DNA of 64,000 nt, from positions 2,046,001 to 2,110,000 of the forward strand of contig JAYWIR010000009.1 in assembly GCA_036172245.1 (NCBI GenBank), given 5' to 3'. This stretch comes from Raillietiella orientalis. Its lineage: Eukaryota. The notes under the pieces were generated by a model, which worked only from the letters and a program-made list of their open reading frames with translations, was not told the origin of the DNA and did not search any database. Shown here one piece after another: positions 35,527 to 59,400 of the stretch. Each line of letters starts with the position of its first letter. Position 1 is the stretch's first letter. Both the position numbers and the translations under genes were made by a program.

Positions 35527-36013
35527 TTTATCACCCGGGTGCGCCGGGGCGTTTATTGAAAAACTATCCGGGAACAGAGTTCCCGGACAAAGGATACAGA
35601 GAAGAGGAAGGGGGTGGGATCCCCGACACGCAGGTCGGTATACCGAAAGTCCGGAGTTCGCTGACGTCGCGACCATGCCCCACTTTATTTCTATGGCATT
35701 CTTTCATTGATCTGTCTGAGAGAACAACCACTCAGAAACCTCCTCTCCCGTCCCTAAGCAGTGCTGCCAGGGTGCGATCATCAAGCCGGTTAGTCCGTAA
35801 AAGACGGTTCCAGCGGTTTCACGCTCAGGGAGAGACGGTATGCCTCGTCATCATGGCTGTGCTTTCTCCGAGATTGGAGGAGTTTCGTGAGAATCACACT
35901 CTATCAAAGATCCTGATGAAGTATGATTTCCGGTGTTGTGTTGGCCGTTAGTGGGCCCATGTACCACGTTTTGTATGTTTTTGTAATAAACGCCTCGCCA
36001 TACGCGGGTGGCA
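35527..36013. mobile_element. Segment bounded by two outward-facing family A tails
   Basis: TCACCCGGGTGCGCCGGGGCGTTTATT at 35531-35557 (minus tail) and AATAAACGCCTCGCCATACGCGGGTG at 35985-36010 (plus tail). Confidence 0.6.
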
Positions 36014-44540: not shown

Positions 44541-44719
44541 AGCCGCGTCTCCCGAGGAAAGGGAATGAAGCAGGCCATCACAGAGGCCAATTCTTCTTTC
44601 TAGAGTTCATTGCTGCGAGGCACGATTTTCAGGTTTTGGATCCTCATCAATTCCTGTTTTCTCTTCCAGGTGGGATCGACTTCGATTTTCCCCTAGTCCC
44701 ACAAGGAGTAAGGTAAATT

Positions 44720-47638
44720 AATTTCCTTTCACATTAGCACTACACTTTCTTTCACACTGTTTAAGCACTTTTTTTCTCACTTGGAAGTTCTTTTGGGGTT
44801 TCATAAGTTCTGCACTTAGGATGGGTTCCTCGATGCTGTTGTCCGGACGTCGTCCTCAATCCTCTTCAGGATGTACCGGTACGTCCAGGCTTGGAGTCTT
44901 CGACAATTCCTGATGCCCATCTCCTAAATTAGTCCTTTCAGGATCTCCATCGGGAATGTGGCTGTCCTGGCTTTTCTCATCTTCCACCATCGCACAATTA
45001 TAGCAGTGATTAAGAGAGCAATGGTTACCATTGGGTTGTAAAAGGGAACATTTGCACTTTCCTGAAATATCCCGAAAAGTATTTCCATCACCGAGGTGGT
45101 GGTCATTCCTATGATCTTTTTCAGGATCAGCCAGTCTCGGAGCAATGTGCGACACGTCAAGACATTGAGTCTCTTGTCCGTATCTTTACATGCCTGGCAG
45201 TCTTCGTCGTCCCTTCTTCCAGTAAAGTGCTTTAATCAGGACCCGCTCAGGATTCCTCCGTGGTAGAACATCAGGAGGTTGTCCTGGGTTTCCGGTGGTA
45301 AGTCACTCCTCCAGAACGTAGTGTCAATCGCCAAAAGGTTGATCCTGTCACTTTCGTGGCGGTCGGCAGCTTCCTGGAGGGCACTGATCTCTTTATCTTC
45401 TTCAGTTATTAATCTTCGGAGGTTTTGTTTATTCGCCCTGGACCAAGCGAAGTCCCTGTGGTTTTTCCACACTTCGCGTGTCCTATGGGTAAACCTTCCT
45501 GACATCATTTGTATATACTGAAGTATCCGCGTGTGATGTAGGTATTCTCCTCTTCTCCATTCCTGGATGCATTGAAGGGTAACTCTGGGCCGCTGGTAGA
45601 TCCATCTTTCCGTTCATAGGGGAACTTGAAGCATCCAAGGGATCACCAGGATGGATTCGTTCTGCCAGAGTTCCATGCTTCTGAAAACGATCTTCATTTG
45701 GTGCTTTGGCACCAGCTTTTGTTTCCTCCTCCAGGTGGGGTCCATGGTGAACCATTCCCCTGCTCGGCCTAGCAGTGCAGTCGTCTGGCCTTTCGAGTTG
45801 TTTAACAACCTCGAAGAGGCCCTGTGAGCTGCATAAGGCCAGTCATTCCAATGAACAGCGATATCCAGGATGTGTCGCGTATCCATGATTTCCACGGAAT
45901 GTGCAAGCGACTTCATCCAGGAACCACCGTCTTCTTTGGGACGACACAAGGGTTTCAGTCTAACCCTGGGACGGTATTTCCCCCAGAGGGTTTTCCTCTG
46001 CAGCTTTTCTACTTCTCTGGTAGTGTCCTTGTTCAATTTATGGAAGGCCGCTCCCAAAAGTATCTTTGGAAGGAGTACTCCATTCCAAAGATTGGCCTTC
46101 CGCTTCATGCCAAGGTCCAGTGAAGTGTACTTTGCTGTTTCTTTCGCCTTTTTCTCTAGGATTTCTGTCCACAATAGTTTCCACGCGGAATTGTCGCCTA
46201 TGTGGACTCCTACGTATTTGGCGTTGCCCACTTATCGGAATCCTCTTCCCGTAAGCACAAAGAGGTCCAGAATTCCGATAGACAGAAGTTGACTTCTGGA
46301 CATTGATCTTTAAGCCCAATCCCTCTTCCATCAGCTTCATCACATCCAGGAACGCTTTCTGTTCTCGCTCCTTCTTGATGAAGAAAACGAGGTCGTCTGC
46401 GTAAGCCAGTTGGGTGAGCTTTTGGTCGTCGATAGTGATTCCATGGAGACGTCCACTTCTCTCGATGAAAGAAGACAGTGCCTGCATGTAGATAACAAAC
46501 AGCATCGGACTTAGTGAGTCGCCCTGACGGACTCCTCATTCCATCCGAATGGCTGCTGTTTCTACCCCGTTGATCTTAATTCGGAAGTACTGCTTCTGGA
46601 GTACCATCATCACGAAGTTGCTGAAATATTCCGGAAGTCCCAGCTTTTCCAGAATCTTTAGCAGCATCCCATGGTCGATGGTGCTGAAAGCTTTCTCCAT
46701 GACGGTGAACTAGCACAAGGTTCTCAGCGACGAATCGGTTGAGTCCCACAGTGGCCTGTGTACACTTGACATTGCCCGACATGTGGCGTCCGGGCACCGC
46801 ACATGTCTGGACAGGAAAGATGAGCTTTGTCATAACCTTGCCTAAGCGGTTAGCCCATATTTTTGCCAACCACTTGGCATCGGAGTTCAGGATTGAGATT
46901 GGCATCCATTGGGCAACCTTGGTTAGGTCCCCTCCTTTCGGCAGCAATCTCATCCTGCTATCGTAGAAGGATTCTGGTAGCCCACCTTCTTCTCGGATGC
47001 AGAGGGTCCACTGGTGGAACAAACGCAGGTAAGCATGCAGGTACCTCTTATATGAGTGATGGGAACACTTGCAGGGCCTGCCGCCACATCCTTGCGTAGT
47101 TCCGAAAACGCAGCCTTCACCTCGTCTTCGGAAAAATCCTCTCCCAATTTCTTTCGCTGGAGTTCGTCGATCTTCTTTCCTAAATGCTTCAGGAAGACCT
47201 TTTGGTTTACTAGGCACAATTGATGCTGTCGGAAATGCTCCGTGTAGTGCCTTTGGAAGGCATCCACGATGTCATCCGACATGTGTCGACTGTAGCCGCC
47301 GTATTGGATACAGAAGATGTCTGTTGTCAGATTCTTCTTTTTCAGCACACCGACTTCTCCTTCAACATTTTGGAAGACGTACCGACTCTCGTACTGTTCG
47401 TAGTATCTTGAGAGGAGCGATCTTGGGTTTTCAGCTCCCGGTACGCCTCCTGCCTCAATCTCCTATCTCCGAATTGCATATTTGCAAAGAGATGGATCGT
47501 GTGCTTCAGGCTGTCCCAGTCGGCTACTCTTCGGATCGTGGTGGTCTTCAGAATCGCCTCCAGGACCTCCTGATGACAGGGATGGTTATCGAACCAGGCG
47601 GGCATGCTGATGAGCGCCGGTGGACACGGTGTCCCCAC
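44720..47638 (-). mobile_element. Tx1/L1-clade family B, 3' part (linker, RT, C-terminus), frameshifted
   Basis: LLPKGGDLTKVAQWMPISILNSDAK, VRQGDSLSPMLF, LAYADDL, KYVGV, LCRPKEDGG and CQACK. The 3' boundary is approximate. Confidence 0.88.
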
Positions 47639-47641
47639 GGT

Positions 47642-49151
47642 GTTGCTGGGGACATATTATTTGATTTTCTAGAATCCAGTCCCGCAGACGACCAGCCAAG
47701 AATTTCGTATAAAGACGATAGCTGGCGTTACGGATTGAAATTGGACGCCAGTCAGACATGTTATGTGAGGATGGTTCGCGTTTCGGTATCAAAACCCTAC
47801 GCGTGCATTTCCAAGAGGATGGAACTCTTTTATGCTTTAGCAGGTTGTTAAAGATGGCAGTCAACAACCCTGCTTCAGGATCCACCGTCTTTCATCCTGA
47901 GTAGGTTATTCCATCCAGACCAGATGAAGAGTTCTTCGCTTTTCTCAACCAAGAAGCCACCTCTTCTTGCGTGAAGGGGGACAATTCTAGGGGAGCAACT
48001 TGCAAGTCTCTCCCTAGAAGTATATTCCCCGGCAGATTGCAGTCAATCGTCGGGGATGCCTCCAGTTCATCGTGGAAGTGTTTTTCAATCTTCCCGGCAT
48101 CAATTTGGCAGCGAGATTCCATCTGCCATAAAATTGACCGGAAGGCCCTCCGTCGGTTCATTCGATACATTCTTTGTATCTCAGCCTTATTGTGTGGGTC
48201 TACTTCTCATGGTTTGCTGTGACCCTTTGGTGAACCGATCTTTAGAATTTTCCTTATCTTTTCCACCAATTCGTCAAAGGCGTTATTGAAGTCGGACCAT
48301 TCCATAATGTCCGACTCCAAGAACCCTGAGAAGACTTTCCTATCATCTTCCAACTGCTCGCTGATTTCAGTTAATTTTACCCGTTTCTTTGCCGTTCGAG
48401 TAGGGGCATCGGTAATATGCATCTCATCAACTGCTTCAAGAATGCTGCTTAACACTTGTTCTTCTCCAGACTCGATTTCTGTAGTTCTTCTCTCTTCTGG
48501 TACAGGGAATAGAGGAGCATCGCACCAGATCCTAAGATCAACGGGCTGCTCATCCTCTATCCCAAGATGTGTAACATCTTCCGTGATGTCCTCTTCCAGA
48601 GATTACCCAACAATTTTATCAAGGTTTCCAAAGAAACCTGCACCTAGCTCATCATCATCTTTCTCTAAGTTGGCTTGTACAGGGCTAGGAATTGCTTGTA
48701 CTTCTTGCTCTTCTCCTGGAAGGGCAACAACCACAGGAGAAGGAGATCGTGTTCTCCTTTCCACCCGATCATGCCAGATTTGGTGGTTCAGAAAACCCCT
48801 TCTCGAGGAGAAAGCCATTCCACACCTTGGCTTGTTGCAGGAAAACCTCATCGGTACTTCTGCCACAGGTGGACGAGGGGGGAAATCGGTGGGTTCTTGT
48901 TCAGCGCCAACGTTGGCGCGACGATGGTCCGAAGGTATTCTGAAAACAATTGTTTCCAAGCATAGGCGGCACTTGTAAACCACCCGATCCACTTCGAACC
49001 CTTGAACACTTCTAAAATGCCTTTTCAGGGAGTGGATCTGTTGGTGGATCGCAGCCATTCTTGTTGCAAAATTACAGCTGGCCACGCCACAACTCAGTGG
49101 CGTGGCTAGAGGATGTCGAATGGTGACCACACAAGAATGTGGTTCCACCAT
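47642..49151 (-). mobile_element. Utopia/NeSL-like ORF fragment (N-terminal Zn fingers plus RT motifs 0-2), 3'-truncated
   Basis: C2H2-like CNKPRCGMAFSSRRGFLNHQIWH, YRMNRRRAFRSI, PFTQEEV, SSGLDGITY, WKCTRRVLIPK and DWRPISI...YRLYTKFLAGRL...ICPQQ. There is no APE upstream, and a U2 fragment lies 5'. Confidence 0.75.
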
Positions 49152-49912
49152 TCCACCCTCTCAACCATCTCCATATTGCAACAGAGACGCCGCGCTCAAC
49201 ACCAAGCGGCAGATGTTGCCGGGCTGCACACCGAAGCAGTGAATGCCACGCTACTTCAGTAGCAATATCTCGAGAACAGACAACCGTTTAGAGAAAACAC
49301 AAAGGCCATCAAAATTATCTTGTAAGTGGTGATCAGTTGTGAAAACAAAAAAGGGCAAAAACATCAGCAAAACACAAAGAAAATAGGCAAATTGAACAAA
49401 TTATCAAAAATACGCATACAAAAATAAACAGACAATGCAAAAATGAAAAGTAAACCGAACAAAACAATTGACACTGGACGTTCTTTATTTTCAGACAGTC
49501 TAGACCGAAAGTCTAGACTATACCGGGAGACATTGCCCAGACAGGACACATATCCAGACATCGCTTCCGGTCCACTATTGGAAACATGTTGACGGCACAG
49601 TGAAAATGACAGTGCAAAAAAAAAAAAAACAGACAGTATAAATAAATCACATAAAGCAAAAAAGGCAAAATAACCACAGAAAGTTAAATACAACAACACA
49701 AAAAAGTAAAAAATAATAAATCACACATAAATAAACATAAACATAAATTTAAAAAGGGATAACATAGAAGCAAAATCACAAAGATCACCAACACACAACC
49801 ACAAAGTACAGAGGAACAAGACTAATCAAGGGAACACAACACATTGGAGAATACACCTGGACACAGGATACAGGAACATATTACACTGAGAACATATAAA
49901 AAACACACACTT

Positions 49913-49973
49913 ATATTAAACTGATAAGACACTACACTACACTTTGATCTTAGCCAAAAGGCCGAGAAGCGAT
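49913..49973 (-). pseudogene. U2: U2 snRNA 5' fragment (nt 1-61)
   Basis: Minus strand ATCGCTTCTCGGCCTTTTGGCTAAGATCAAAGTGTAGT-gtagtg-TCTTATCAGTTTAATAT. It matches metazoan U2 except nt 39-44, and similarity ends after ~61 nt. Confidence 0.93.
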
Positions 49974-50672
49974 GGTGCTGCCTTGTTTCCGCCGAGGATT
50001 TTCCGTCCTCAGGGAAAACCGCATCAAGGGGTGATCGGACAACGCGGTGGGGATGACACGAAAACCTTGAATGCGGTTCCCCAGTTCCGTGCTGTGAAGG
50101 ACGTGGTCGGTCGGACTGTGGCTTGCTATTCGCCACAGCAGTCCGAACTCGTCGGAAAGCCGCCGATACGCCTTCCTTCCTCCGGCGTCCTGGGATCTTG
50201 TGGGTTCGTCCAGGATGTTGAGATCGCCAGCAACGATCACGACGTCCTTGGGCGCGACCTTTTCCCGGAGTGCCGCATGCAGCGCCTCCGCACATCGATG
50301 TTTGTACCTATGTGGCCCATACACGTTTACCAAGAAAAGGTGAACGTTAGCGGACCAGGCCAGTCGCACGCAGATGATACGTCCCAGCAAGGGACAGAAG
50401 ACTTCCAGAATGGTAGGGGCCAGTTGGTTCTTGACCAAGACCACCACACCTTCCGTGTTCCGCTGTCCTTTGCTGACGAACATCTGCCCATCGAAACGTC
50501 GTTCCATTTGCTGTATGATGTGGAGACCCAACGTGTGGGTCTCCTGCAGGCACACGATGTCTTGTTGTGCGATGATCCGCACAATTCTTCTTCTTTGAAC
50601 CTGGTTGATCAGACCGTTTACATTCCAGGAGGCGATGTTAATCCTCCTGGCGGTCGACAGGGTTGAGGCCAT
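49974..50672 (-). pseudogene. Family B ORF2 APE endonuclease domain, interrupted
   Basis: ASWNVNG, CLQETH, NVYGP, AGDLN, TDHV and LSDH motifs. Confidence 0.9.
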
Positions 50673-50685
50673 AAAAGGGGAAGGC

Positions 50686-52447
50686 CTACTTCTCGGCCTT
50701 CCTGAGTTTCTTCTGTCTGGGAGAGCGTGGTGCTCTTCCAGACGAAGAAGCAGGAGCGGGTCTCTCGCTGCCAGCGTCGCTCGCCGTCCCGGTGAGATCG
50801 GTGATGTCGGTCTCTTCGGTGGAGTGCTCGGCTCGTGCGACGATCTTGAGTGGGAGGGCTTCCAGCGCCACCTTGGCGCAGAAGTTTGCCTTTACGTCGA
50901 GCAGCTTTTCCTTCAGCTTCTCGCGCTCGGCAACCTCCACCACCTGGTTGACGGTTTCTTGTGCGTTGCAGATCTTCTGCAGGAGTTGCTCCTGCTGAGG
51001 TCCGCTCTGCACTTCCATCACCTCCTCCGCCAATTTCTCGACCTCTTCGGTAGTCTGCAGGGCCTCCTGCGACACCGGAGTGGGTTCCACCTTTTCCGCC
51101 TTCTCGCCTTCTTCCGTTACTTCTTCCATCCTCTCGCCTTCCTCTGCTTTAATTGTTTTTGAGGTTTCACAACCTCCGCCAAGACCTTTTCCCTTACGGG
51201 GGACTGGCCATGCATCGTCCGGTAGTTGGCGAACTCCGGACAGCTCCACCTCGCGTGCCCTGGCTGCTTGCAAAAGGAGCAGACCTCGGGCATATCGCAA
51301 CTGCATACCAGGTGCCCCTGCTTCCCACAGCGGAAGCAGCGAGACCTGGGGCAGGCACCCTGACGATGGCCGAAATGTTTGCAACCTGTGCAGAACACAG
51401 GTTGCTGCCTATAAGAGACAGAGCCTCCTGGGAGTCTCCATCAATTTGCACAATCCTAGGGATCTGTGCCTCCTCCTGCAGCTTCACCTTGGCGATCACC
51501 TCGCCAGAGAAGATTTTTCCGGAGATGTTCTGGAATTCCAATTCCAGAACCTCCCATACTTGGACAAGAAGTCCTAAACAGCGTCCTGCTCAGTATCAGC
51601 GTTTACGCCTTTCAGGAAGACGGTCGTGTACGGCATTTAGCCGATCCCACAGACCATCCGCCCCTGGATGTTTATGCCCTTCTCGATCAGGGCCTCCTTC
51701 AGTGGTTCACTATCTGTGTAGATAGTGAACCCCGACGTACTCGGAATGATCGCCTGCAGACGATCAAAGTCCACATTGGCCTTAAATAAGGCCAGGTATA
51801 CTTCTCTTACATTATTGAATCGGATCAGTCCGGTCTTAAACGTTATCAGTTTGGATTCCCGGCTCCTTGACCCGGGTGATCTTTCCCCTCTCGGGTCTGC
51901 CAAATTTTCTCTGCGGCTGGGCACTTGCCTGGCCCTCCGCCACCGCCGCATACGAAATAGGCTGCACCGCCGCAGCCGAGCAAGATGGTGTCGCGATGTT
52001 CGGCACGTGGACGCCCGCGGGTCCCGCCTGGGACGGCGCCTGGGACGGCGCCTCGGGCGCGACCTTAACCGCCGCCGCCGGCGCGACCGTTGCCGCCGCG
52101 GGCACGACCTCCACCGTTGCCGCCGCGGGCGTGACCCTTGGCATCGCCGCCGCCGGCGCAACAACTGCCGCCGCGAGCGCGATCCTCGAACTGGCCGCCG
52201 CCTCTCCACTGCCGTACTGTACCTCCATTTCTTCTATGGGGGACGTCGGTCTCCTCGCTCCTCCTCCTGTTGCCTGCATCCTGGCGGCTGGTACTGCCGC
52301 TGAGGAAGTTTGCAGGTCTTCCACTGTGGTCTCCTCGGCGCTGCTCCTGCAGTTGTAAGGGATGATCCTCGGCAGCACTCTCTCTTCCACACTTACTATC
52401 TTTTTGACAGTTGCCCTCTCAGGGCACACACGATCACAATTGATCAC
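50686..52447 (-). pseudogene. Family B ORF1: Ala-rich N-terminus, three CCHC knuckles, acidic coiled C-terminus; frameshifted
   Basis: CTGCKHFGHRQGAC, CFRCGKQGHLVCSC and CSFCKQPGHARWSC. Confidence 0.85.
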
Positions 52448-52479
52448 AATTAATTAACCGTGTTGATCACAATTGAAAC

Positions 52480-55740: not shown

Positions 55741-57131
55741 TAATCCCTCGTACCTCGCAAACCGACAGACGGGAAGATAAGTGATTTACAGCGTCCCTCT
55801 CGGAGGAAATTCAAACCGGTCTTTGTCATGCAAATTCGGCACCTTTCTGGAATGTTTCTTGGTTTATCCATTAGATTATACCAGTTTTTCCTTACCCATT
55901 CATGATTACTTCACCGAGCCGTACTATCTTGTGCCACCAAGTTTCCCGAGGAAGAAGAGAGTGGACAGAGCTTTTGCAAGAATCCTTAATATTAACCTTA
56001 AAGATTCTTCTGAGATACAATTGCGAACCAAAAATGTCTACAGCTCGAATGTTTGCTCCTCGAATATTTCCATTCTTGCAGCCAGTCATTCTCTAAGAAA
56101 AATAGAGCAGTTTCATGCACATCACCAAGGGGAATGGCAGCAGTCCTTCCGATGCAAACGGTTCGCTTTCCTAGTGAAACTGACTCTAGAATTCTCGTGC
56201 TTCTTGATCTGATGCTTTGCTGAAAGCTACACGCTGCATGCTGACATGGAAATTTTTCTAACTCACAAATAAGGATTTTTTGTATGTAATAGAATGGACA
56301 ATGACTACTTGCATTTTCTCCACGTACAAAACATGAACATTGTACTTGATGTGTACTTGATGTGTATTCTGTAAACTGGAGCCTGATGAAATTCTTATAT
56401 TGTGATGCATCTAATGTGTGCCTTGCATGGGAACAACATCCATATATACTCATAATATGCTGCAAACATTTGCTCCAAAGATGTAGATGGAATCGCATGT
56501 TTTCATTCTAAAATCTTATGTAGAAGTTTGTGAGGTTTACAAAAATAGAAAACCAAGTCTTTGATGGGAATGTGCTCCATTATCTTTTGAGAAAATAGAT
56601 TAGTATTGTCAGTAAACTTCTACTGATGTAGTCACATTCTTCAGAGGTATGACTTCTCATTGAATCAGGATATAAAACTCCGAATACTGCTTGAATTTCT
56701 CCGGTTTTTCTCTTATTTAATTTAATTCTGATGAATTTTACGATCACATATGCTTTTGTAACGTATATTGCTTGCTATAAATACAAAGTTTTGGAATTGC
56801 TACTTAATTTTTAACAATTCTTTGTTCAAGCTCTAAAAAAGGCCATAAAGAGTACTTGATGTTGGAATTGGAGCGTGATTTAATGATTTCTGAACTCAAA
56901 AATATATGGTTCGTTTTATTTGCCGATGAGGAGGGAGGCCCTGCGACTCACGATTGGGCTTACGTGAGAATAACACGAGTCGCCCTTGCTCTTACTGTTG
57001 TGCAGAGTAGTAAGTGTAATTCTTAGTGAAGGGTATGTGTGTTTGCCTTTTCACTTGGAATGTTTTTCACATTTTACTCCGAATCATGAGGTAAACTGAT
57101 AAACGACAAGAAATCCCTTCCTGTGATTGAA

Positions 57132-57850
57132 ATGGCCCAAACAGACAGTGTTATTTCTATTAAACCGAACAAGAAATCCATAAACTTTGCCAATAGAGTG
57201 CCGCCAGAAATCTTGGAGCACCCCAAAATGAAGGCAACTTTATTGTCTTTGCCTTCTAATTACAATTTTGAGCTTCCTAAAACTATAATGCGAATCATGG
57301 CAAAAAACAAAAAGAAAGTTGCCTTACAATTTCCAGAAGGCCTGTTAATGTTTTCCTTGAGGATTGCTGATGCTATTGAAGCAATGACAAATGCGGAAGC
57401 AGTTATAATGGGTGATGTTACATATGGTGCCTGTTGTGTGGATGATTACAGTGCAAGAGCATTAAACTGTGATTTGTTAGTTCATTATGGACACAGCTGT
57501 CTTATACCTGTCAGCGAAATGCAGGGACTCGATATGCTTTATGTTTTTGTAGACATAAAAATAGATGCTTTGCATTTTATGAAAGTCATCAAAGCTAATT
57601 TTAGTGAGTCTCAAGAGATTGCCCTTGTTAGTACCATACAGTTTTTATCAACCCTTCATTTTGTGACCAGGGAGTTGTCTAAGGAAGGTTACAGCATAAC
57701 AAATCCGCAAAGTAAGCCATTGTCTCCTGGAGAAATTTTAGGCTGTACTGCACCCAAACTGAGTACAACAGAAATATTGATTTATTTGGGAGATGGGCGA
57801 TTCCATTTAGAAGCTATGATGATGTCTAATCCCACTATTACTGCCTATAG
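57132..57850 (+). CDS. DPH1: DPH1 (diphthamide biosynthesis 1) exon 1
   Basis: LPSNYNFELPKT, VALQFPEGLL, GDVTYGACCVDD, HYGHSCL, STIQF, PLSPGEILGCT and YLGDGRFHLE. Donor AG|GTAAGT, phase 2. Confidence 0.96.
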
Positions 57851-59400
57851 GTAAGTACATATAGATGATACATTTGTGTTTTTTAAGACGAACTTTGGGA
57901 TTGCAATCTCTTCCTTTTATCAGTGTATGTTTCAGTGGCACTATCTTCCTCCTTTTCAATTGCATTTGTTACTGGACATTTCCTTGACTTAAAATGTACT
58001 GTAATATGAAGTTTCAAATGATTGTAGCACAATGACTCTACACTTAGGAGTGCAAAAATGTGCTTTCTTGCCGAGAATCCAGGGTTAGGTTTCCTTTGGA
58101 GACATTCCATTGTATTATCTATTATTAGAGTTATAAAAATTACATATAAGTAGTCCTCAGTCAGAAAAGTATTCGAATATGAATGAGTGATAATTTCTTA
58201 TTCATGCTTTAAGAAAAATAGAATCATTACATGCAGGATAGCTTATGCTTTCTGCATCTTCAAATATTAATCTGGACTAAAAATGGCGTTGTTTGTTCTG
58301 GCAGCCCGATGAACAAAAAGATATCGACTTATGCTGTACCGCATGTGTTAAATCGTTAATGAAAACGGATGGTGTTTTTTTCCTAATTATAGATTCGATA
58401 TAAGAAACATTCTTGCTTGATATCCATGGTAAAAAATTATTGATTGGTACAGTAACAAAGCTTTGCAAAAGTTCTTGAAAGAAGTTATTTTACTCAGCAG
58501 AAATTATAGTTTGCATGCATGATAGATCGTTTCTCTTTCTTGATTAGAAAATTGCATCAGAACATTTAATGAATTATAGATTTTGTAATAGCCATCAGAA
58601 ACTCTTCGTAGTTGTATGGAGTTCACATTAGCAAAGCTAGTTGTTGTAATTCATGAGCCCAACTTCAAGAATACATCCATAAATAAAAGTGTCTTGGGCA
58701 CCGTATGCTTTCTTAAAAGGGATGTGCAGATAACGTTTTTTATGATTCCCTTGATGTGCACCTTTATCACCGTTACTCTTATTACTATCATTGCATAAAT
58801 TTTAAGGAACTTTGTTTCCCAGTTATGCATTTCATTACTTTTTTCGTGTTTGTTTCAATCACCTGTGAAAATGTGCTTCACTTTAGCACTTTCATTTATG
58901 TATAATCAGCAAAACTAGAAAATTCCTATGAACTACAATTACAGCCTTAAGTATCCGAATTCAAGGTCAAGTTCATCTCTCAAGGTCTAAGCATTCATGC
59001 TTATTCATCGTTTTCAGTGGAAGTTCCTGTTTTGGGAACAATCATAAAAGTGGAACATCAATCTATTCCATATAATATATTTTAAGTGAAAACAAGAAAA
59101 TAAGGTTTTCATGATGTGTTAATCTTGTTATCCAACAGTCGTTGCATCAATCAGAATCTGGCCAAAATTCAGCAATCTAACCAAGCATACAAGTTTATGG
59201 CACTTCAGAATAAGATAACCATGATCTCAATTCATAGCATATACAACTTACATAAAAATTATGCAAAACCAAATTGTGTAAATGTGATTGGCCTCCTAAT
59301 GTACTGGGAAATCTAAATAGGGCTGAATGTTTTGGAAAGAGTCCATTTCATGAAACTTAACCCCTTAATGAAATGATGTGCCAACATTTTATATTTTCAG

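Follow-up and report, generated by a model that had tools for sequence, protein, structure and literature searches.

We identified, in a 64-kb stretch of Raillietiella orientalis DNA (the window, read here at its full length of 64,000 nucleotides), a cassette at 47620-49973 on the minus strand that runs from U2 snRNA nucleotide (nt) 1 to the last base of a junction filler. It is best explained as the 5'-terminal 2.33 kb of a retrotransposon of Utopia type (NeSL clade, encoding a restriction-like endonuclease, RLE) that was copied from RNA and now interrupts ORF2 of another LINE, family B, which we take to be Tx1-like and in which we found APE and RT domains. The insert is real, dead, of Utopia type and RNA-derived, and shows no sign of function. 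Comparison with other copies favours a U2-initiated transcript as its proposed source. We propose, with a probability of about 0.5, that the cDNA of such a transcript was patched into a break at a preferred site in family B, leaving no duplication. The features of the region are as follows:

50686-52453, minus strand: host family B ORF1 region, gag-like, with CCHC knuckles, split among several frames (three-frame translation; knuckles found by eye)
49974-50672, minus strand: host family B ORF2, APE endonuclease domain, the left flank (Pfam Exo_endo_phos, E 1.3e-20)
49979-49981, minus strand: 3-nt local host duplication directly before the insert (seen in 0 of 69 other copies)
49936-49973, minus strand: U2 snRNA nt 1-38, not preceded by the U2 upstream block (identical to promoter-bearing U2 heads)
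49930-49935, minus strand: 6-nt scar where Utopia cuts, a repeat of the U2 bases just before it that takes the place of U2 39-44
49913-49929, minus strand: stretch resembling U2 nt 45-61 (16 of 17 match), part of the 5' end of the lineage
49161-49912, minus strand: T-rich 5' leader, ~760 nt (85% identical over 59 nt to the copy C6)
about 49570-49490, minus strand: conserved GTCTGG-repeat island, then AATAAA, within the leader (alignment of three copies)
47644-49160, minus strand: decayed Utopia-type ORF, 5' part, ending in RT motif 1-2 (similarity to the copies C97 and C30a; tree)
47620-47643, minus strand: junction filler, 24 nt, self-templated and matching neither element (fold-back match and internal direct repeat)
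44700-47619, minus strand: remainder of host family B ORF2 (RT, C-terminus) and 3' end (the junction lacks 4 nt of target)

This layout agrees in outline with the original prediction: U2 nt 1 at 49973 directly abuts the host APE domain, and the ~760-nt T-rich leader is followed by a Utopia-type ORF whose last residues are ...QIICPQ, with host ORF2 resuming beyond. Elsewhere in the window, a U3 snoRNA match (35727-35930, minus strand, 89.6 bits) lies amid fragments of another LINE, family A. An ORF at 57090-57854 (plus strand), presumably a relative of the diphthamide biosynthesis protein DPH1, is the only clear host gene seen in the window.

The Utopia-type ORF of the window copy carries three in-frame stops in 505 codons, two zinc-finger-like motifs detected by pattern search, and the start of an RT domain that falls below the Pfam cut-off (RVT_1, E 0.003); in siblings the same domain reaches E values of 1e-24 to 5e-31. 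At the DNA level the coding part is 91% identical to C97 and 81% to C30a; in all, six other places in the genome match it at 73-91%. Among the best-scoring relatives of the C30a RT, those with names are from spiders, a firefly, a tick, turtles, nematodes and oomycetes, and the top 107 database matches score 165-361 bits versus 108-157 bits for solved R2 proteins. A quick RT tree, built from 28 of 120 listed matches and with the window row filling 31% of the columns, joins that row to its siblings (100%) and then to arthropod RTs (99%). Its Utopia-type clade, a name given from domains and species rather than from Repbase in a tree that has no labelled R2, R4 or HERO rows, comprises 26 rows (98% SH-aLRT) and holds RNase-H-bearing oomycete, Ulp1-bearing and turtle RTs, with the APE-type RTs apart. 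Tree and RT homology support the Utopia/NeSL-type identity that had been predicted.

The C-terminal zinc knuckle and restriction-like endonuclease are missing from the truncated window copy and were seen by eye in siblings; a Pfam scan of a single C-terminal ORF reported no family. The 5' junction of the window copy preserves U2 1-38 exactly, as expected of a Utopia junction at about nt 38. On its 3' side the copy stops within the RT and continues into filler and host, with no U2 from nt 39. Two siblings, C30b (74% identical) and C19a, do have 3' ends at U2 nt 39, and C97 and C30a do not. On these comparisons, we assign the window element to the Utopia type by lineage, though this particular copy has no 3' junction.

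We examined the host site in 70 of the 278 genome matches to a 20-nt motif beside it. Among the 278, family B copies at C26, C33, C43, C76 and C87 are spaced at intervals of about 5.6 kb, suggesting tandem arrays. The APE domain of the left flank is 82-94% identical to 39 other copies among the matches listed. Over its last 100 nt the left flank shows 85-91% identity and over its first 200 nt the right flank shows 91-97%, both to one host subfamily, which indicates a single insertion site. The host is itself a mosaic, with a subfamily switch ~200 nt to the right of the insert (window 47400-47420). Because that switch is 200 nt away from the junction, flanks derived from two different host copies were ruled out.

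The 3' boundary differs from that first drawn. Utopia homology stops at 47644, the filler occupies 47643-47620, and the host restarts at 47619. The original prediction held that removing the insert restores the host frame, but intact copies encode RRQGTRAALISMPAWF or close variants at 16 of the 19 loci shown in register (of the other three, one is interrupted and two are indel-shifted), and the junction sequence of the window is absent from all 69 other family B copies examined. The uninterrupted junction that had been expected, and whose absence had been named in advance as counting against the proposal, is therefore missing from intact copies. Measured against intact family B, the window gains 3 nt on the left and 24 nt of filler and lacks 4 nt (AGGG). 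The join across the insert is in frame (+3 -4 +19 = +18 nt), a 1-in-3 coincidence that depends on where the boundary is placed. Nor does the proposed CAGCACC/CAACACC target duplication stand, since CAACACC spans the Utopia end and the filler and the best flank-to-flank match scores 5. With 3 nt gained, 4 nt lost and 24 nt of filler, there is no target duplication at the window site.

The filler contains an internal 8-nt direct repeat, reached by 2 of 5000 shuffles, and can fold back onto the Utopia end through an 8-nt match (flank match in 240 of 5000 shuffles, hairpin in 176 of 5000). Filler of this kind is expected from self-templated end-joining or from RT slippage. These junctions bear on two alternatives. 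In one, a complete U2-headed Utopia inserted itself, through relaxed specificity or behind an older U2 fragment, and its 3' half was later deleted, the filler being the scar. The filler does resemble end-joining, off-target Utopia copies are described in the available text of PMC4640811, and the off-target copy C57 is internally deleted with its two ends complete, lacks a duplication and removed 7 nt of target. Such a deletion, however, would need an endpoint no more than 4 nt from the first junction; the resemblance of the family B site to U2 is unremarkable (62-290 of 652 tiles are as good); and no U2 fragment lies at the empty site of C57. We consider a later deletion improbable.

Alternatively, the family B RT may have left its own RNA at a point just past the APE coding region, copied a U2-Utopia RNA from nt 2330 to the cap and then resumed on its own template, which would put host and cassette in place in one event. 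Cassette and host share one orientation, filler at one junction is paired with a 3-nt repeat at the other, and the mosaic host shows that a subfamily switch lies ~200 nt away. Yet two in-register switches within 4 nt would be required, and the coincidence with a spot at which two other copies were hit at the DNA level would be left unexplained. Such an excursion is, in our view, very improbable.

The insert adjoins a spot that other elements have also used. Among the 69 other host copies, two carry family-A-type insertions at one base, -7 relative to the right junction of the window. The first (C1, L192:1314-4610) is flanked by a 12-bp duplication from -7 to +5, and the second (C23, L220) extends to the contig end, where a duplication is unreadable. 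The two inserts are 68-77% identical in hosts that are 84% identical, and the nearest neighbours differ, so we regard the insertions as independent. The window junctions, at -4 and 0, fall within the same 12-nt span from -7 to +5. For two breaks in one 15-nt window we obtained a rough P of ~0.007, against 21 other breaks over ~2400 nt (n = 20 used, with a cluster of alignment ends at -1000 to -1100 omitted as subfamily divergence); the value rests on two events and a window set post hoc. Five of seven distinct family A ends lie at unrelated sites, which indicates a preference rather than specificity. The prediction that the cassette had landed at the end of an APE domain is upheld in that an APE-preferred site lies there, on evidence beyond that first offered.

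Inspected by eye, the family B site seemed a good imitation of the U2 target of the Utopia enzyme; we rejected this reading, as 62-290 of 652 tiles score equally well. For comparison, when the empty site of C57 is scored against U2, 18-49 of 722 tiles equal it under two of the window sizes and 391 of 722 under the third. As a separate observation, the family B or A ends at L239, L258 and L049 adjoin sequence that by eye resembles the 3' half of U2.

The U2 head was predicted to be contiguous from nt 1 to 61; instead, a repeat of the bases just before stands in for nt 39-44, and nt 45-61 match at 16 of 17 positions. Rfam at gathering score does not call the short U2 piece of the window. U2 1-20 has 250 matches in the genome, versus 0 for a reversed control. 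In C6, which has no upstream block, U2 1-33 plus 45-59 precedes a leader of this kind and the same ORF at 73% identity, and C19b carries U2 39-59 ahead of a similar leader, so the leader belongs to the element. This bears out the predicted linkage of leader and Utopia-like ORF in other copies. Genome-wide, the leader has two matches, the window copy itself and C6, whose scar differs; neither of these two supplies a second copy with the scar of the window. The 3' truncation of C6 may postdate its insertion, as C6 has no empty-site reference. No shared fold emerged, since the conserved island gave z values of -3.2, -0.5 and -0.2 in the three copies; the first 274 nt of the leader gave -0.7. No ribozyme was matched by Rfam in the 64-kb window at gathering score.

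The U2 upstream block occurs at four loci genome-wide, all interrupted at nt 33-38, and the window leader follows none of the four. The genome search suggested in the original prediction was therefore borne out as to linkage of the leader with the ORF, in C6, and not as to a promoter-bearing U2 locus with that leader. Among these four, C30a has the upstream block, U2 1-33 and the lineage of the window, C389 has a repeat at its 5' junction similar to the window scar, and C482 has the upstream block followed by a 5' end shared with C57 (77%, two of two matches) and joined at nt 38. Exact starts at U2 +1 without the upstream block are seen in the window copy, C6, C57 and C19a. Of these, C57 belongs to another Utopia family and has a U2 1-38 head. 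Its empty paralog contains no U2, and its insertion removed 7 nt of target without duplication. The insert is internally deleted; the Utopia C-terminal motif is still present, as is an AT-rich 3' end, and this 3' piece has no other match in the genome. Because the empty paralog lacks U2 and the 3' end is intact, the U2 head arrived with the element; C57 was rejected as a second 3'-truncated copy. The C57 insert (L186:5646-8861) lies in repeated non-U2 sequence, whose flank, read by eye, is a possible decayed Rep fragment of a circular-DNA virus. At L164/L067 (C19:821000-831580) we observed a tandem Utopia pair outside the U2 promoter, in the order U2 1-35, element a, U2 39-59, element b.

We surveyed 100 of the 250 exact U2 heads. 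Most (71 of 100) end at nt 34-37, five end at nt 38, the window copy included, and none extends past 39. One has the upstream block. Six are followed by Utopia-like sequence, five of these without the upstream block. Flank duplications accompany 21 of the 100, versus 23 of 1000 controls. In none of 86 cases did the U2 head appear to cap the 3' part of family A or family B, both of them far commoner (blastn, with the six matching loci read by eye, in a set that under-samples long heads). No intact U2 gene was found in the assembly, in which collapsed arrays could conceal some. Among the best 30 Rfam U2 loci, 29 were parsed at nt 39, and U2 1-38 lay upstream in 0 of the 29; the three exact matches to the U2 target motif are all internal fragments. 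Genome-wide there are ~250 dispersed U2 5' fragments, and the U2 genes interrupted at nt 38/39 number at least 29. One head (L130, C3:1470482) consists of U2 1-34 with an 11-nt duplication and is followed by a short stretch that we take to resemble the U6 5' end and that Rfam did not call.

The main rival reading is that reverse transcription jumped from a Utopia RNA, itself without U2 1-38, onto U2 snRNA. Template jumps do occur in such elements, as L146:629-1300 (C9:4868828) joins U2 1-35, 5S rRNA (Rfam 72 bits) and a Utopia C-terminal tail, and the clustering of heads at nt 34-37 with duplications indicates that U2 RNA is readily copied from there. In addition, C97 and L280 carry short heads on 5'-truncated Utopia, and SINEU repeatedly gains U1 or U2 sequence at its 5' end by template switching, according to the available text of PMC4494074. 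A jump would not, however, predict a junction at exactly nt 38 both in the window copy and in C57/C482, nor a repeat scar like that at the DNA-target junction of promoter-bearing C389, and promoter-bearing donors with truncated Utopia (C30a, C389) could yield every head by read-through. We judge the jump unlikely. Overall, an RNA origin starting at U2 +1 is supported by these sequence comparisons, and the heads favour transcription that starts at the U2 promoter and reads through, comparable to R2 and 28S (available text of PMC3774820 and PMC13580325). The predicted copying of a U2-initiated transcript to another site receives independent backing from C57/C482 and C6, while the junction arguments offered for it fail.

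We propose the following route for the preferred reading, a U2-initiated RNA captured at a family B break. The interrupted loci demonstrate that real U2 genes are targets of the Utopia-type lineage, which enters them at nt 33-39, and the U2 promoter would then read through the interrupted gene to give an RNA comprising U2 +1, leader and ORF. Reverse transcription would start 2.33 kb into this RNA, by internal priming or because the RNA already ended there, and so leave a copy without the Utopia 3' end. The copy may then have been patched into a break at the spot in family B for which an APE-type family shows a preference, with overhangs trimmed and ends joined through self-templated filler, which would yield the 4-nt loss instead of a duplication. 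Given the RNA origin, we consider it slightly more likely than not that an APE made the break. Against this, a small loss without duplication is like C57, apparently the work of Utopia itself, and unlike the 12-bp APE duplication. Against U2 initiation stand the lack of the window leader at all four promoter-bearing loci, the lack of a second copy with the scar among the leader matches, and the template jump at L146.

More generally, we speculate that Utopia has no promoter of its own, depends on U2-promoter RNA, and is captured in trans at APE-type LINE cuts when that RNA ends prematurely; we regard this as doubtful. If true, off-target U2-capped copies would preserve a fossil record of where Utopia transcription begins and of mobilisation from one LINE clade by another. 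Utopia is a very widely spread site-specific LINE whose mode of transcription is a gap in its defining paper; the word 'promoter' occurs 0 times in the available text of PMC4640811, and within our literature coverage, which excludes most subscription journals, no paper was found to address the topic in its title or the opening of its abstract. Off-target copies whose first base is U2 +1, two of them with checked empty sites, point to read-through from the U2 promoter. Each ingredient has precedent (co-transcription, internal priming, snRNA heads and nested LINEs); new here are the two empty-site comparisons, the promoter-bearing and promoter-less pair, and the family B hot spot.

Utopia was defined as a group of U2-targeting RLE non-LTR retrotransposons of the NeSL clade (Kojima & Jurka 2015, PMC4640811), with a 3' junction at U2 nt 39 and some off-target copies; in the available text, 3'-truncated copies are left out of its Table 2. 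Our elements share with that description U2 1-38 on the 5' side, siblings ending at nt 39, zinc fingers with RT, tandem insertion (C19), off-target copies and, as in its arthropod families, insertion without duplication. The window copy differs in lying outside a U2 gene yet starting at U2 +1, without a 3' end and inside another LINE. Keno, a Tx1-clade element in the same source, also targets U2, but it encodes APE, and the RT of the insert groups far from APE-type RTs, so the insert is not a Keno.

SINEU and the U1/U2-headed Tx1 families (Kojima 2015, PMC4494074) likewise place a U2-derived head on a retroelement, and the available text leaves their transcription source open. Those families keep the element 3' end and are multi-copy, whereas the window holds a single dead 5' half; it is also coding, unlike the short, non-coding, multi-copy SINEU type, and its leader has only two genome-wide matches. 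A snRNA-LINE chimera of the U6/L1 type would have the Utopia 3' half downstream of the head, where it is missing. Tailless U2 retropseudogenes of mammals, attributed to internal priming (Noll et al. 2015, PMC5322556, available text), are likewise 5'-complete, 3'-truncated copies of U2-headed RNA, but they are short, L1-made and flanked by duplications. The insert is 2.3 kb long, and its 4-nt loss and filler in place of a target-site duplication set it apart from them and from ordinary APE-type target-primed insertion. A further parallel is R2, likewise a site-specific RLE element transcribed within its target gene, which is co-transcribed with 28S rRNA and often keeps upstream target sequence at the 5' end of its RNA (Eickbush et al. 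2013, PMC3774820, available text). R2 trims its co-transcript by an HDV-like ribozyme, whereas the head of the window copy reaches the first base of U2.
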